From an uncultured Candidatus Saccharibacteria bacterium (GTDB lineage: Bacteria > Patescibacteriota > Minisyncoccia > Phycocordibacterales > UBA9973): a stretch of DNA of 64,000 nt. The stretch spans positions 3,394 through 67,393 of the forward strand of contig CAZQAW010000002.1 in NCBI GenBank assembly GCA_964591445.1, in the 5' to 3' direction. The translations under genes and the position numbers were made by a program. Below are positions 2,543 through 44,290 of the stretch, in pieces. Below the pieces are notes generated by a model. That model was not told where the DNA came from. It saw only the letters and a program-made list of their open reading frames with translations, and made no database searches. Position 1 is the stretch's first letter, and each line of letters starts with the position of its first letter.

Positions 2543-3043
2543 TTGTGGTATACTGGAAGAGTGCCTGAGCAGTATAAACGAAAACCAAATACCAGCTGTA
2601 CCGTCTGCAAGAAACCTCTGTATCGTCGTCCTTTAGTTTTACAAAAGAACGGAAATAAAGCATTTTGCAGTCTGACATGTTATGGTCTTTCAACAAGAAA
2701 AGAGCATCCTTGCATTGTGTGTGGAAAACCTATCCTCGCACAGTTTAATAAAAAAACGTGCAGTCGGGCATGTGCAAATACCAACAGGTCCGGAACTCAA
2801 TACAGAGTTGGTAGACCAAATGACAAAGCAGTCAAAGACCGGGCTCTCAAAATAAAGTTACTTAAACTACGAAGCGGGCAGTGCGAAAGATGTGGATATA
2901 GTACCCGCGAAATTCTCCAAGTTCATCATAAAAATAGAAACCACTCAGACAACAGAGTTACAAACCTTGAACTCATTTGTCCCAACTGCCATTGCAAAGA
3001 GCACTATTTCAATAACAGCTGGTTGAAAAAATATACAAAATAA
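2543..3043 (+). CDS. HNH endonuclease-like protein with three CxxC zinc-ribbon pairs.
   Basis: The C-terminal HHKNRNHSDNRVTNLELICPNCH is an HNH motif. It is preceded by CTVCKK..CSLTC, CIVCGK..CSRAC and CERCGY. Confidence 0.65.
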   Translation: MWYTGRVPEQYKRKPNTSCTVCKKPLYRRPLVLQKNGNKAFCSLTCYGLSTRKEHPCIVCGKPILAQFNKKTCSRACANTNRSGTQYRVGRPNDKAVKDRALKIKLLKLRSGQCERCGYSTREILQVHHKNRNHSDNRVTNLELICPNCHCKEHYFNNSWLKKYTK

Positions 3044-3058
3044 GGTAATGTTCTACTC

Positions 3059-3144
3059 GGAAGCGTGGCAGAGAGGTCTAATGCGCTTGTCTTGAAAACA
3101 AGAGTCCTGAATAGGGACCGTGAGTTCGAATCTCACCGCTTCCG
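3059..3144 (+). tRNA. tRNA-Ser, anticodon UGA (long variable arm). CCA is not encoded.
   Basis: Manual fold: acceptor GGAAGCG/CGCTTCC, anticodon stem CTTGT/ACAAG with loop CTTGAAA, 17-nt variable arm, T-loop TTCGAAT, discriminator G. Confidence 0.9.
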
Positions 3145-3156
3145 CAGAAACAAAAC

Positions 3157-8469: not shown

Positions 8470-8530
8470 CCTCACCCCCGGACTTCGTCTCGGCCCCTCT
8501 CCATTAAACTGGAGAGGGGCTGGGGTGAGG
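8470..8530. repeat. GC-rich nested-palindrome element, copy a: CCTCACCCC - CCGGACTTCGTCTCGG - CCCCTCTCC ATTAAAC TGGAGAGGGG - C - TGGGGTGAGG.
   Basis: Outer 9-bp inverted repeat CCTCACCCC/GGGGTGAGG encloses an inner palindrome CCCCTCTCC/GGAGAGGGG. The same modules recur at 16027-16065 and 43757-43870. Confidence 0.6.
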
Positions 8531-15826: not shown

Positions 15827-16294
15827 TTAAGAGATCTCAATCTCGCGAATAGATTCTTCTTTGTGAGACAAGTTTACCTTGATTGCATCAGACGGAATGA
15901 GTCCTGGAACCTGTTCTGGCCATTCGATCAGAATAAGATTTTTTGGATCAGACATGATTTCTTGCCAGCCGAGTTTTTCTAATTCTGTTTTGGAGCTTAA
16001 GCGGTATGCATCTATATGGATGAGTTTTGTGAATTGCCCCCTCTCCTGGCTAGGAGAGGGTTGGGGTGAGGTTGGTGGAAGATTATAGAACTTCATAATT
16101 ACAAACGTTGGTGAGACGAGATGTTCTTTTACGCCAAGCTCTCGCGCGATTGCTTGCGTGAACGTTGTCTTCCCTGCGCCAAGGTCTCCGGAAAGTGCAA
16201 CAACAGCCGCGCCGGTAAACCGGCGCGGCTTCACTGCTTCCAGCACTTCTTCCGCAACAGATTGTATTTCAGGTAGCTCAAAACTTCGTTTCAT
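15827..16294 (-). CDS. tsaE: tRNA threonylcarbamoyladenosine biosynthesis ATPase TsaE (YjeE), carrying an in-frame insertion of about 14 aa.
   Basis: P-loop GDLGAGKTTF, SPTF and HIDAYRL motifs. Between SPTF and HIDAYRL lies NLPPTSPQPSPSQERGQ, which is encoded by the palindromic repeat at 16027-16065. Confidence 0.8.
   Translation of the reverse strand: MKRSFELPEIQSVAEEVLEAVKPRRFTGAAVVALSGDLGAGKTTFTQAIARELGVKEHLVSPTFVIMKFYNLPPTSPQPSPSQERGQFTKLIHIDAYRLSSKTELEKLGWQEIMSDPKNLILIEWPEQVPGLIPSDAIKVNLSHKEESIREIEIS
16027..16065. repeat. GC-rich palindrome element, copy b: CCCCCTCTCCTGGCTAGGAGAGGG TTGGGGTGAGGTTGG, inserted in frame in tsaE.
   Basis: Same inner palindrome and GGGGTGAGG module as at 8470-8530 and 43757-43870. 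It translates as PTSPQPSPSQERGQ on the minus strand. Confidence 0.6.
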
Positions 16295-16314
16295 GCGGAG
16301 ACTTTAGCATAAAG

Positions 16315-16428
16315 AAAAGAAAGAAACTAGTTGGAAAAGCCTTGCGGAGGCTGTCGAGCCGAGCAGGCTACATTTTCAGCAGAAAATGATAGCTTGCTTT
16401 TCCAGCTAGTTTCTTTCTTTTCCGACAC
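16315..16428 (+). ncRNA. Candidate structured RNA or repeat element, copy 1. The conserved ~50-nt core CCTTGCGGAGGCTGTCGAGCCGAGCAGGCTACATTTTCAGCAGAAAAT sits inside a 24-bp flanking stem.
   Basis: The core is shared with 36935-36985 and, in reverse complement, with 63229-63284. The flanking arms AAGAAAGAAACTAGTTGGAAAAGC / GCTTTTCCAGCTAGTTTCTTTCTT pair with a single U-G wobble, which holds only in the plus-strand RNA. An intrinsic terminator follows at 16434-16457. Confidence 0.45.
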
Positions 16429-32134: not shown

Positions 32135-33232
32135 CTAGCGGTTCATTGGCATTACCAAATAAGTAAATGAAGTGTCGCCGGAACCTTGAATAACGAGCGG
32201 TTTATTGCTGCCATTTGAACGGAACACCACGCTGTCTTGGTGAATGGATTGGAAACAGTCAAACACGTATTTATAATTTACATTCAAATCCACCTGTTCC
32301 CCAGAAAGTGCGCCGTCTACCGAAGTAGTATTTTCCCCGACATCATTATTCTTTGCATAGAGTTTTATTTTTTTCTCTTTCGGGTTAATGGAAAGAGTAA
32401 TTTGGTTAAATTTATCTGAAAAAATATTTGAAATTTTAAGCGCGTTCATTGCGTCTTGTTTTAAAATAATTGCTTCGGTCGTATGAGTTTTTGGAATGAT
32501 CTGTTTGTAGTCAGGGAATACGCCGTCGATAACTCGAGAAGTGAGATAAAGCCCTTGTGTTTCAAAAACGATCTGATTTTTACCAATAACCATATTCGCA
32601 TCGGTATCTATATCCTGACACACACGCACTATTTCTAAAATGTTCTTATACGGAATAATGATCGGAGAAAATTCATACGTTTCTTTAGTTTTTATTTTCT
32701 TTTCCGCTAAGCGGAATGAGTCAGTCGAGACAAATACAAGAGAACCTTGATCCGGATACATATACACACTTGAAATTTCTGGCTTTATTTCAGAGAGTGA
32801 TGCGCTGTAGTATACCGCTTTAAAGCCTTCTATAAGCTTTTTAAGAGGGATTGTGATGGATTCACCTTCTACAGTCGGAAGCGTTGGAAAATCTTCGGCT
32901 GGCTGGCCTTTAAGGATAAAAGAATTCTTTTTTGTTATCATTTCCAGGTTTCCATTCTTGAGCTCAATATTTACAACACCTTCGTCATACATAGTAGAAA
33001 AAAGACTTGAAAGAAGTGTTCCAGAAACAGCACAAACACCCTCTTGCTCGACTTTTGCCGGAACTTCAAGTTCGATACCTAAAGAAAGATTTGTTGCGCG
33101 AAGCTTCACACTTTTACCAGCGACCACAAAAAGAATAGATGAAAGCACAGGGAGGGTTAGATTTTTACCCGTTACGCGTTCAGCATTACTTATAGCCTTC
33201 TTTAGTTTTTCAATTGAACACTCGAATTTCAT
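32135..33232 (-). CDS. dnaN: DNA polymerase III beta subunit (sliding clamp).
   Basis: Three-domain beta-clamp pattern beginning MKFECSIEKLKKAISNAERV. It sits immediately downstream of dnaA. Confidence 0.9.
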   Translation of the reverse strand: MKFECSIEKLKKAISNAERVTGKNLTLPVLSSILFVVAGKSVKLRATNLSLGIELEVPAKVEQEGVCAVSGTLLSSLFSTMYDEGVVNIELKNGNLEMITKKNSFILKGQPAEDFPTLPTVEGESITIPLKKLIEGFKAVYYSASLSEIKPEISSVYMYPDQGSLVFVSTDSFRLAEKKIKTKETYEFSPIIIPYKNILEIVRVCQDIDTDANMVIGKNQIVFETQGLYLTSRVIDGVFPDYKQIIPKTHTTEAIILKQDAMNALKISNIFSDKFNQITLSINPKEKKIKLYAKNNDVGENTTSVDGALSGEQVDLNVNYKYVFDCFQSIHQDSVVFRSNGSNKPLVIQGSGDTSFTYLVMPMNR

Positions 33233-33463
33233 ATATGTGTATTTTATTCTTTATTAAATACTATTACTAATACTAGCATGGTGGATATGTGGATTAGTGG
33301 TATAAAACCCTTATTTTGTATAGCTTAATTGATAATTTCATACTGTTTATTTCTTGTTGATAATGTTGACTGTATGTTTATAAATACACATTTTTCATTA
33401 AAGGATATATTCTTTCCACAGATGAGGTATCGGTTGTATACACACTTCACACTCTTTTCCACA
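33233..33463. promoter_or_regulatory. dnaA-dnaN intergenic region: candidate oriC segment with degenerate DnaA boxes and an AT-rich stretch that could be a DNA-unwinding element.
   Basis: GGTGGATAT, TGTGGATTA (33281-33297), TTTTCCACA (about 33456). Long AT-rich run at 33300-33410. Confidence 0.5.
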
Positions 33464-34813
33464 TTATTTAAACAGAGTTCTCAACTGTTCAAGCTCTTGG
33501 ATAAGTCCCGGGTCGGTTTTTAAATCTTTCTTGATCTTTAAACACGAGTGAATGACGGTCGTATGGTCTTTACCACCCAATTTTTGCCCAATAAGAGGGT
33601 ATGAGACATTGAAATCCTCTCGAAGGATATACATAACAAGCTGGCGTGCCTTTACTATCTCCTTTCGGCGTGTCTTGTCATAAATAGCTTCTTCTTCAAG
33701 GTTAAAGAATTCAGCAATAGACTTCACCACATCTTTAATTGCGACATTTTTCTTTGGGCGAATGTTATTTTTGATAAGATTTTTAACTTCAGCCAATGTA
33801 ATTTCGCGATTTTTGAGTTGAGATTGTACTAAAATAGAATTTAAGCTCCCTTCAAGCTCGCGAATACTGCCTTGGATCGATGCCGCCAGGTGTTCAAGTA
33901 CTTCGTCTGTTATTGAAACAGCTGATTCCTTGAGTTTCTCTTTGAGAATTGCCAAACGAGATTCGTATTCCGGCTGGTTGATATCAACGATCATACCCGC
34001 AGAGAAGCGAGACTTGAGACGGTCTTCAAGGCCTGGAATGTAGTTTGGGTGTTTATCTGAAGAAAAGATAATTTGCTTGTTGTTTTCGTATAAAGTATTG
34101 AATAAATGGAATAATTCTTCTTGTGTTTTCTCTTTTGTGGAGATGAATTGGATATCGTCCATAATAAGCACATCGTATTTACGGTACTTTTCTTTAAAAC
34201 TATTTGGTTTGTTGTTTTGGACGGAGTTGATGTAATCGATAGCGAACTTTTCAAGAGTAATATAATGCACTTTTTTCTCTGGATAGCGAGCTTTAATAGC
34301 ATTTCCTATTCCTTGAATAAGGTGTGTTTTTCCGAGTCCTGTATCTCCATAGATAAAAAACGGGTTATACGAGGTTCCAGGGCGGTTTATGATGGCTTGT
34401 GAAGCAGCATGAGCGAGTTCATTGAATGGTCCGACGACAAATGAATTTAAATCATAGCGTGGGTTTAAGTTGTCTTCTTTGTTGATATATAAATCTTGAA
34501 GTGGAAGTTCTCTGTGACTAAAAACACTTTTATCTTCAAAGTGTTCTTGCGCTTTTTGGCGAGCATCGTGTTTGCTAATGATGTACTCTACCCCGCGAGT
34601 ATCCTCCGCAAATGTCATGAGTGTTTTTAAAATAGACTTGTGAAATTTTTTATAGAGCCAGTCTTTAACGAATTCATTCGGAACGCCGATGTAGATGGTA
34701 CCAGCTTCCTGTTTTGCAATAGAGGTGTTCTTGAACCATGTACTAAAGTTGGCTTTAGACATGTCTTTTTCAAGTTCAAGTAAACAATTGTCCCACAGTT
34801 CTTTGGTATCCAT
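33464..34813 (-). CDS. dnaA: Chromosomal replication initiator DnaA. The start was refined to the internal ATG (MDTKELWDNCLLELEKDMSKANFSTWFKNTS).
   Basis: Walker A GDTGLGKTHL, sensor and box motifs, and a C-terminal DNA-binding helix. The ORF-track start is a GTG that lies inside a perfect DnaA box. Confidence 0.9.
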   Translation of the reverse strand: MDTKELWDNCLLELEKDMSKANFSTWFKNTSIAKQEAGTIYIGVPNEFVKDWLYKKFHKSILKTLMTFAEDTRGVEYIISKHDARQKAQEHFEDKSVFSHRELPLQDLYINKEDNLNPRYDLNSFVVGPFNELAHAASQAIINRPGTSYNPFFIYGDTGLGKTHLIQGIGNAIKARYPEKKVHYITLEKFAIDYINSVQNNKPNSFKEKYRKYDVLIMDDIQFISTKEKTQEELFHLFNTLYENNKQIIFSSDKHPNYIPGLEDRLKSRFSAGMIVDINQPEYESRLAILKEKLKESAVSITDEVLEHLAASIQGSIRELEGSLNSILVQSQLKNREITLAEVKNLIKNNIRPKKNVAIKDVVKSIAEFFNLEEEAIYDKTRRKEIVKARQLVMYILREDFNVSYPLIGQKLGGKDHTTVIHSCLKIKKDLKTDPGLIQELEQLRTLFK

Positions 34814-34982
34814 ATGAAGTACACCTATTATAGACTTTAAAAGTATATTTGCAAAATTATCCACAGCTTAATTAACATGTGGATAAGGTGTGGAAAGATA
34901 TGAATAACTTTTCTCACCCCTCGCTTCGCAAGGGAGGAAAATTGAGCTTGTAAAATAAAATATTTTATTGTATACTCCCCTC
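34814..34982. promoter_or_regulatory. Region upstream of dnaA with perfect DnaA boxes TTATCCACA (34857-34865) and TGTGGATAA (34878-34886), plus TGTGGAAAG (34889-34897). It also contains the rpmH promoter.
   Basis: Exact matches to the TTATNCACA consensus in both orientations, 10 nt apart. Classic rpmH/dnaA divergent arrangement. Confidence 0.55.
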
Positions 34983-43756: not shown

Positions 43757-43870
43757 GGTGTGTATTCCTCCTCTCCTAGCCAGGAGAGGACTACGGCTTG
43801 CCGAGTGGTGAGGTTGTTTGTTCCTGAACTCAACCTCACCCCGAACCTTCGGTCGACCCTCTCCTAGCCA
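43757..43870. repeat. GC-rich nested-palindrome element, copy c (composite): CCTCTCCTAGCCAGGAGAGG ... GTGGTGAGG ... CCTCACCCC GAACCTTCGGTCGA CCCTCTCCTAGCCAGGAGAGGG.
   Basis: Contains the same outer (CCTCACCCC/GGTGAGG), linker (CCGnACnTTCGnTC) and inner palindrome modules as copy a. Lies in the intergenic region between the virB4 N-domain gene and the prgI-like gene. Confidence 0.6.
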
Positions 43871-43879
43871 GGAGAGGGT

Positions 43880-44290
43880 TTATTTCTTTTTCACGTCCAA
43901 CACGTCGAGCGACCATGCCATGTCTTTGAGCTTGCTTTCGGAGAGTTTTGGTACGTATGAAGATGTTGGAATCGAAGATGCAGCTTCTTTGTTTATCTCA
44001 GACTGATCTCTCGGTATTTTCTTCCAGACGTAGAGTTTGCTCTTGCCGATGTATGCGATGTATGACTGCAAGATGTCAATAAAAGGCTTGTCGTTGACTT
44101 TGTAAAATGTGAGCGCAAGTGAAAGTGCGGCAATAGGAAGCATGATAAGCACAGCAAAAAAGAACGGCAAGATTTTGTAGATGACGAAACATATTCCCGC
44201 ACCGCCGGCCAAATACAAGAATTGTCGGAACGAGAACGGCCCAAAGATCTTGTCTTCAACGTCGATGAATTGTGGAACTTTGAATTGCAT
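43880..44290 (-). CDS. PrgI/VirB3-like small membrane protein of type IV secretion systems.
   Basis: MQFKVPQFIDVEDKIFGPFSFRQFLYLAGGAGICFVIY plus a second TM helix: the PrgI-family N-terminal pattern (x.FGP.t.RQF.yl). Confidence 0.5.
   Translation of the reverse strand: MQFKVPQFIDVEDKIFGPFSFRQFLYLAGGAGICFVIYKILPFFFAVLIMLPIAALSLALTFYKVNDKPFIDILQSYIAYIGKSKLYVWKKIPRDQSEINKEAASSIPTSSYVPKLSESKLKDMAWSLDVLDVKKK

Follow-up and report, generated by a model that had tools for sequence, protein, structure and literature searches.

We identified the GC-rich palindromes of a 64-kb stretch of DNA, hereafter the window, as very probable members of the BoxC/PIT/TMECO architectural class, the G/C-rich class II intrastrand triplex motifs. 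Taken as a whole, the observations are probably best explained by a small non-coding interspersed repeat of this class whose triplex fold is selected and which spreads via folding. The class of structural repeat is already known, whereas the window copies are new as an additional member, with the differences described below. The motif literature comprises work by Bachellier in the 1990s, Hoyne & Maher (2000, 2002) and Holder et al. 2015 (PMC4666352). The preliminary description of this DNA, which had proposed a MITE- or REP-like element, did not recognise this known family with the same architecture.

Repeat copies in the window

GC-rich modules shared by three loci had been reported previously, and they are real at all three, with small corrections of coordinates. 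By pattern scan of the 64-kb window, the inner palindrome CCCTCTCC-N-GGAGAGGG was located at 8495-8518, 16039-16060 and 43857-43878; compared with these three strict matches, 100 dinucleotide-preserving shuffles yielded none. The form CCTCTCC-N6-8-GGAGAGG matched four times in the window and never in the shuffles, and a fourth, slightly decayed hairpin at 43770-43789 was caught by this relaxed CCTCTCC-N-GGAGAGG form only. Exact copies of GGGGTGAGG were present at 8470 and 43834 on the minus strand and at 8522 and 16063 on the plus strand, together with a one-mismatch copy at 43805-43813. The original extent of copy A (8470-8530) stood, and the other two were redrawn: copy B spans 16037-16072, not 16027-16065, and copy C spans 43767-43878, having been noted as 43757-43870. 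The gene context given earlier was right for every copy. Copy A occupies the spacer of the divergent rpsT and ruvA genes, copy B lies in frame within tsaE (PF02367), and copy C is found between PrgI-like and TraC-like genes of a T4SS-like cluster.

Read on its G-rich strand, a unit of the family begins with a pyrimidine arm (CCCCTCTCC), which pairs across a variable loop with the complementary purine arm (GGAGAGGGG); a linker then leads to a third, G-rich segment (GGGGTGAGG). The four hairpins of the window have stems of 8-10 bp and always present the pyrimidine arm first; stems are highly conserved and loops are variable in this interspersed, multi-copy family. The third segment is a mirror image of the purine arm, as the reversed arm GGGGAGAGG equals the tail save for one A replaced by T, and in all window units such a segment (G opposite G, A or T opposite A) lies 3′ of the purine arm. 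The tail is accordingly a mirror repeat and not an independent terminal repeat. The linker measures 2-3 nt in the plus-strand unit of copy A and in copy B, and is a small hairpin of 14-17 nt in the minus-strand unit of copy A and in both units of copy C.

A single hairpin makes up the core of copy A, and each strand supplies a third strand to it; this is why copy A resembles a nested palindrome. Its central hairpin (8494-8519; pyrimidine arm CCCCTCTCC, loop ATTAAACT, purine arm GGAGAGGGG) has a DNA fold of -26 kcal/mol (z = -7.5). The plus-strand unit is completed by GGGGTGAGG at 8522-8530, which follows the 2-nt linker CT. The minus-strand unit has a long linker at 8479-8493, CGGACTTCGTCTCGG on the plus strand and the mini-hairpin CCG-a-GAC GAA GTC-CGG on the minus strand, and its third strand at 8470-8478 reads CCTCACCCC on the plus strand and GGGGTGAGG on the minus strand, again mirroring the purine arm GGAGAGGGG apart from a T in place of one A. 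A single plus-strand unit constitutes copy B, in which the hairpin CCCCCTCTCC-TGGCTA-GGAGAGGG (16037-16060) is followed, after the linker TT, by the third strand GGGGTGAGGT (16063-16072); the complete 36-nt strand is CCCCCTCTCCTGGCTAGGAGAGGGTTGGGGTGAGGT. Copy C contains two units arranged tail to tail. Unit 1 (43767-43813, plus strand) is slightly decayed and is composed of (T)CCTCTCC-TAGCCA-GGAGAGG(A), the linker mini-hairpin ACTACGGCTTGCCGAGT and the third strand GGTGAGG, and unit 2 (43834-43878, minus strand) of CCCTCTCC-TGGCTA-GGAGAGGG, the linker mini-hairpin TCGACCGAAGGTTC and the third strand GGGGTGAGG. The spacer between them (43814-43833) forms, together with both third strands, a 10-bp inverted repeat GGTGAGGTTG/CAACCTCACC. 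The 9-bp outer inverted repeat of the preliminary description is confined to copy A and to the unit pair of copy C; it does not hold for copy B, which has a GGGGTGAGG arm on one side only.

Several other features were noted in the window. In the spacer upstream of tsaE, a 17-bp inverted repeat GAAAAGAAAGAAACTAG/CTAGTTTCTTTCTTTTC (16314-16330 and 16406-16422) encloses approximately 75 nt and may be a different small palindromic insertion; at this place, the related genomes L002 and L254 hold two triplex-motif units instead. The dnaN and dnaA genes at 32135-34864 mark a likely replication origin region near 35 kb. To its right, a T4SS-like/surface-protein gene cluster (37023-61895, minus strand) points towards it, and transcription of this cluster would be head-on to replication if oriC adjoins dnaA. 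A small ORF at 2543-3043 with a weak HNH_3 endonuclease match (E = 1.2e-5) adjoins tRNA-Ser (3059-3145), far from the repeat copies.

Mirror symmetry and relation to known triplex motifs

The third strand changes together with the purine arm. In L002, purine arm and third strand read GGGGAGG then GGAGGGG, AGGGGAG then GAGGGGT, AGGGAAGG then GGAAGGGT, and GGGGGAG then GAGGGGG. L254 also carries variant purine arms, each with its own mirror third strand, and in two other CPR genomes (L029 and L114) GGAGGGG is followed by GGGGTGG. The loci were retrieved by a pattern that included the third strand, and the unbiased test is formed only by the 81 pyrimidine-arm hairpins from the same loci that are without the CCTCTCC core; a full-length mirror third strand was present within 48 nt downstream in 26 of these 81. 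On the same hairpins, shuffled flanks gave 0/81 and the direct-repeat model gave 7/81, and this model was rejected for the third strand, the mirror model being preferred.

Co-variation was also detected in the linker. Eleven linkers of 16 nt were analysed, taken from the window and from Cyanobacteria, Bacteroidota and Armatimonadota; 94.5% of cells were paired and compensatory change was present at all five of the five pairs. The covariation score was 0.72; shuffles reached 0.23 (0/500), and slid controls 0.08-0.20. The mirror co-variation shows a constraint; it agrees better with a triplex than with a quadruplex or a transposase site, and the reader of this constraint may be a triplex, a protein or an RNA fold.

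A different structure has been proposed for the same E. coli motif, which Kaplan et al. 2016 read as a quadruplex-hairpin switch (HPGQ). Applied to the present family, the four G-runs of the purine arm and third strand would compete with the hairpin. The E. coli sequence GGGAGAGGGTTAGGGTGAGGG is a canonical G3 quadruplex motif that switches in vitro (Kaplan et al. 2016), and the window copies do have G-runs of GG, GGGG, GGGG and GG. However, these runs permit a two-tetrad form only, and four G-runs of at least three with short loops were found neither in the window (GG/GGGG/GGGG/GG) nor in the L002 variants, which have two runs. The L002/L254 forms AGGGGAG...GAGGGGT and GGGGGAG...GAGGGGG retain perfect mirror symmetry with two usable G-runs, and the long hairpin linkers would be poor quadruplex loops. 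Since several variants have just two usable G-runs, the conserved property is mirror symmetry and not quadruplex potential. A quadruplex was rejected as the conserved feature on these L002 variants, which are without four G-runs, and the switch is a very improbable account of the family.

The order of parts, i.e., pyrimidine arm, loop, purine arm, short loop and G-rich mirror strand, is shared with BoxC/PIT/TMECO, and the E. coli motif has been described as a class II purine-motif intrastrand triplex with a pyrimidine arm, a purine arm and a reverse-Hoogsteen strand (PMC4666352). The E. coli TMECO sequence is CCCTCTCCC-N3-6-GGGAGAGGG-(TTA or CCG)-GGGTGAGGG (PMC4666352), and the core found here is nearly the same (CCCTCTCC / GGAGAGGG / GGGTGAGG), and T·A-T and A·A-T fall at equal positions. 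Both families have short second loops, among them CC, CT, TT, TTA and CCG. The two also share inverted pairs, multiple copies, local hypervariability between strains and, as far as the 30 window ORFs show, the lack of an associated transposase; in E. coli, five pairs of TMECO copies are in inverted configuration, and TMECO loci are unusually variable between strains (PMC4666352).

The window copies also differ from the E. coli family. Their register is shifted by one G relative to BoxC/PIT/TMECO, and window-type first loops are 6-8 nt in length, compared with 3-6 nt in E. coli. Because of this register shift and the different loop lengths, the strict TMECO pattern CCCTCNCCC-N3-6-GGGNGAGGG-N3-GGGNGAGGG has no match in the window. 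Unlike TMECO, the present family has an optional structured linker of 14-17 nt (up to about 40 nt), and one hairpin can bear third strands on both sides. In-frame intragenic copies occur here, whereas E. coli TMECO copies are always intergenic (PMC4666352), and the host, assigned through homologues to Patescibacteria/Paceibacterota (a CPR lineage), has a genome of 43% GC. A further likeness was found to the G-rich repeats of Methanomicrobiaceae and Deinococcus, e.g., GGGGGGTGGGGG-GCA-GGGGAGGGGG-CTCG-CCCCCTCCCC (PMC8044849). These are also interspersed, with a G-rich double run beside a complementary C-rich arm, and combine a purine arm with its mirror in which A is replaced by T. However, the archaeal repeats follow the order third strand, purine arm, pyrimidine arm (class I polarity); the repeats of that study are intergenic only, and its authors read them as a quadruplex/hairpin switch (PMC8044849).

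Occurrence in other genomes and turnover at individual sites

Distribution of the family was assessed by a scan of one genome per species with CCTCTCC-D-N2-10-H-GGAGAGGG-N1-31-GGGGTGAGG, a pattern written to exclude the E. coli register. Among the matches listed, the motif occurs in more than 12 bacterial phyla, including Patescibacteria/CPR. Carriers among these matches are Chloroflexota, Bacteroidota, Cyanobacteria, Planctomycetota, Gemmatimonadota, Verrucomicrobiota, Armatimonadota, Nitrospirota, Ignavibacteria, Alpha-, Gamma- and Deltaproteobacteria and Melainabacteria, and at least four CPR genomes are among them (Nomurabacteria twice, Magasanikbacteria and Amesbacteria). The same pattern matches viral contigs among the matches listed, and the family is thus common to bacteria and phages. 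In 40 metagenome contigs (31-66% GC) we detected a hairpin with the window's own loop, set in many unrelated flanks, and copy A shares its long linker almost letter for letter with the Ca. Nomurabacteria locus L102. We did not find this breadth across phyla and viral contigs, or the co-variation of third strand and linker, in the searchable literature.

Two individual contigs deserve mention. L107 is labelled as a Bathyarchaeia archaeon; since Dehalococcoidia contigs carry exactly the same unit and linker (GGGATTAAGG), L107 looks more like bacterial DNA binned with the wrong genome than like a case of the repeat in archaea. On a Bacteroidales contig (L011:62-251), three identical short-linker units are spaced by 78 nt, and therefore the family can form tandem arrays as well.

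Architectures were compared for 164 hairpins of other genomes among the matches listed. Most (124) have one short-linker tail and 15 have one long-linker tail; a further 15 combine a long and a short tail as copy A does, six have two long tails and four have two short tails. The third segment is therefore on one side only in 139 of these 164 hairpins. This bears on the proposal that the family is a MITE, i.e., a non-autonomous transposon with terminal inverted repeats CCTCACCCC/GGGGTGAGG whose transposase would be encoded at another place and act in trans. A 9-bp outer inverted repeat in copy A, a multi-copy family, presence/absence polymorphism and the same element in different genes would all fit a MITE. 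However, an arm that is one-sided in copy B and in those 139 hairpins, and that mirrors and co-varies with the inner purine arm, does not behave as a terminal inverted repeat, and a transposase-binding end would have no reason to co-vary in this way. Target-site duplications, an expected trace of such movement, were absent from 273 single units (longest shared flank word 3.55 compared with 3.29 in the control), and none was visible at copies A, B and C. The units are just 32-61 nt long, and no transposase domain was present in the 30 window ORFs. We therefore consider a MITE very unlikely.

Comparison with relatives revealed empty and filled sites at loci B and C, and the repeat was gained or lost between relatives rather than being limited to three copies with the same sequence in all of them. 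At the tsaE site, L003 (TsaE 78% identical) is empty, and L001 (86%) has the same unit as copy B with a 36-nt hairpin linker. L004 and L005 (50%) carry a short-linker unit at the same TsaE loop, and L002 (79%) carries a different unit in the orientation opposite to that of copy B. At locus C, the spacer between the PrgI-like and TraC-like genes is empty and 31-44 nt long in L246-248, L253 and L257, and in L256 it is filled by the same 111-nt composite as window copy C. The locus A spacer of L002 and L254 contains two units of other subtypes, and these genomes have two further units upstream of tsaE, where the window has none. In addition, one unit is present with 45/45 identity in two genes, tsaE of L002 and ksgA of L256, and unit 2 of copy C recurs in L277, its linker unchanged and its flank different. 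Empty and filled sites, together with the same element at different sites, therefore show that the family was copied to new sites and lost from old ones.

Turnover was most evident between L254 and L002. These genomes differ at 129 positions in 13.2 kb, and 99 of the differences are packed into the 400 nt that surround the tsaE element; the site is occupied by a different element in opposite orientation. Outside both clusters of differences, there are 7 in roughly 12.4 kb. The tsaE difference is an allele swap with the element at its centre. As at TMECO loci, the region of the copy B site is more variable between close relatives than its surroundings. The second cluster (L254:2201-2600) has 23 differences and covers the 3′ end of a large surface-protein gene beside tsaE; the two genomes are otherwise approximately 99.9% identical. 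A separate observation concerns the loop of a copy C hairpin, which is inverted between the window (43777-43782, TAGCCA) and L256 (9941-9946, TGGCTA) in composites that are otherwise almost identical; cruciform or template-switch events would be expected to produce such a flip.

We also considered a REP/BIME origin, in which the palindrome would be bound or moved by a RAYT (IS200/IS605-like tyrosine transposase) or would serve as a site for gyrase, IHF or another host protein. The window family is an interspersed GC-rich palindromic repeat that turns over, as REP-like elements are; it is located mostly in spacers, the copy C composite resembles BIMEs, and recognition of a single-strand hairpin would fit an HUH enzyme. 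Small GC-rich extragenic palindromes, mosaic clusters and presence/absence polymorphism are likewise common to this family, REP/BIMEs and MITEs. This part of the preliminary description holds, but the conserved GTAG-type head of REPs is absent from the flank profile. In a Pfam scan of the 30 ORFs in these 64 kb of the source genome, transposase, RAYT (Y1_Tnp) and HUH domains were not detected. Copy B is intragenic, and in-frame intragenic copies are common elsewhere. REP families are species-specific, whereas one core occurs here in more than 12 phyla (among the matches listed) and in phages, and mirror symmetry is not explained by a palindrome-binding dimer. Unlike REP/BIMEs and MITEs, the window family has no target-site duplication or true terminal inverted repeats, and its host range is far wider. 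A REP/BIME origin is accordingly highly improbable.

Five of the six reading frames of a unit are open, and copies are found in frame within genes. The whole unit of copy B is translated on the minus strand as PPTSPQPSPSQERGQ, which adds about 10-15 residues to a TsaE loop whose modal length in homologues is 11. In an AlphaFold model of TsaE (pLDDT 86, pTM 0.82), residues 78-84 have pLDDT below 50 and form the loop between strands 67-71 and 90-95. In other genomes, units were located within or adjacent to Pfam matches of real genes, which comprise Peptidase_M23, Peptidase_M19, altronate dehydratase, a Type ISP restriction enzyme, DnaG, a phage portal protein, Dus (a Nomurabacteria genome) and ksgA (L256). 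In the searchable literature, we came across neither in-frame copies in essential genes (tsaE, dus, ksgA) nor near-identical genomes whose differences are nearly all close to a copy. The elements yield spurious or altered peptides (PSP..GEG.GVR, TSPP.PSP..GEG), which annotators should recognise.

Side observations were made on two of these genes. The ksgA/RrnaAD product of L256 (911-1900) has 329 aa, compared with 266-289 aa in relatives and in the window, and its gene contains two in-frame triplex-motif units (1199-1245 and 1718-1764), the first of which is the 45/45 unit of L002 tsaE. The TsaE loop is longer in many CPR homologues (P0116, P0073, P0086 and P0118), with inserts such as VIPAKAGIQ and FDHAQGK that resemble translated copies of further GC-rich repeat families. 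Repeats of several types seem to land, or to be tolerated, in this loop time and again.

A precedent for such insertions is provided by Rickettsia palindromic elements (RPEs), small palindromic repeats that occur in frame in protein genes and are tolerated as an extra surface peptide. RPEs are 100-150 bp in length and are not known outside Rickettsia. Compared by description only, they are like the present family in that a palindromic insertion is tolerated in frame within genes; to our knowledge, triplex or mirror logic has never been described for them. A literature search on palindromic in-frame elements in Patescibacteria returned Rickettsia RPE papers only, and one on the translated peptides (GEGLGVR, ERGPGGEV and others) returned nothing relevant.

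Transcription, proposed fold and significance

Function at the RNA level was also considered. Transcribed hairpins or a three-way junction could stabilise mRNA or partition it, a role that REPs have in operons; they could also attenuate read-through or hide GGAGG runs that resemble Shine-Dalgarno sequences. Watson-Crick folds of the elements are very stable (z = -7 to -8), and in the alternative Watson-Crick folds copy A is an ordinary three-way junction and copy C is five hairpins. The linker hairpin co-varies, the genes on both sides of copy C are co-directional members of an operon-like cluster, and a terminator-like hairpin with a T-run is present at 43855-43890. However, this last site, the sole terminator-like site in the terminator scan, is antisense to both neighbour genes. 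Elements point either way with respect to genes, as the opposite tsaE copies of the window and L002 illustrate, and Watson-Crick pairing of the third strand with either arm is poor. RNA does not form purine-motif triplexes, and promoter or terminator activity was not found for E. coli PIT elements (PMC4666352). No Rfam family was matched; searches of the whole window at the gathering threshold, and of loci A and C at an E-value threshold, returned only tRNAs and sub-threshold noise from miRNA-precursor hairpins. A promoter scan of copy A gave two weak 9-of-12 promoter-like matches that flank the element but do not agree in strand with rpsT or ruvA; a TGGTATAGT-type -10 box, seen by eye upstream of rpsT, lies outside the element and is conserved with L002. 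An RNA element is thus unlikely, and for annotation of the window the palindromes are best labelled as a known class of structural repeat, not as a regulatory RNA, terminator or transposon.

For the BoxC/PIT/TMECO-class repeat, we propose the following mechanism. Once single-stranded during replication, repair or transcription, the G-rich strand would fold into a hairpin and a reverse-Hoogsteen purine-motif triplex (G·G-C, A·A-T, T·A-T), and selection on the element would preserve this hairpin-plus-triplex fold. The fold would promote stalling, template switching and recombination, and these events may copy the element to new sites and also invert, swap or delete it; the same events would make its surroundings hypervariable. 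The element would encode no function of its own and persist where it is tolerated, in intergenic spacers and in permissive loops such as the TsaE beta-hairpin.

The steps of this proposal differ in strength. An isolated TMECO strand forms a stable triplex in vitro, as judged by CD, NMR and melting; in double-stranded TMECO DNA no triplex was seen, and in-vivo DMS footprinting gave no protection (PMC4666352). Triplex formation in vivo is thus hypothetical even for the E. coli type family. That the triplex is the selected fold is a conjecture that we hold at close to an even chance, leaning slightly against it, and the copying mechanism is one that we infer entirely. It is a long shot that the family is a phage-carried, cross-phyla mobile DNA of a new type, propagated via a self-folding triple-helical single strand rather than via terminal repeats or a dedicated transposase.

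If the triplex fold is selected, these repeats would offer a natural handle on two old questions: do DNA triplexes form in living bacteria and make a difference there, and how do BoxC-type repeats spread without a transposase? If the more far-reaching proposal is true, mobile DNA of this new type would be small enough, and open in enough reading frames, to enter essential genes in frame, minimal CPR genomes included, and the three-way co-variation would be the first comparative-genomic evidence of a DNA triplex under in-vivo selection.
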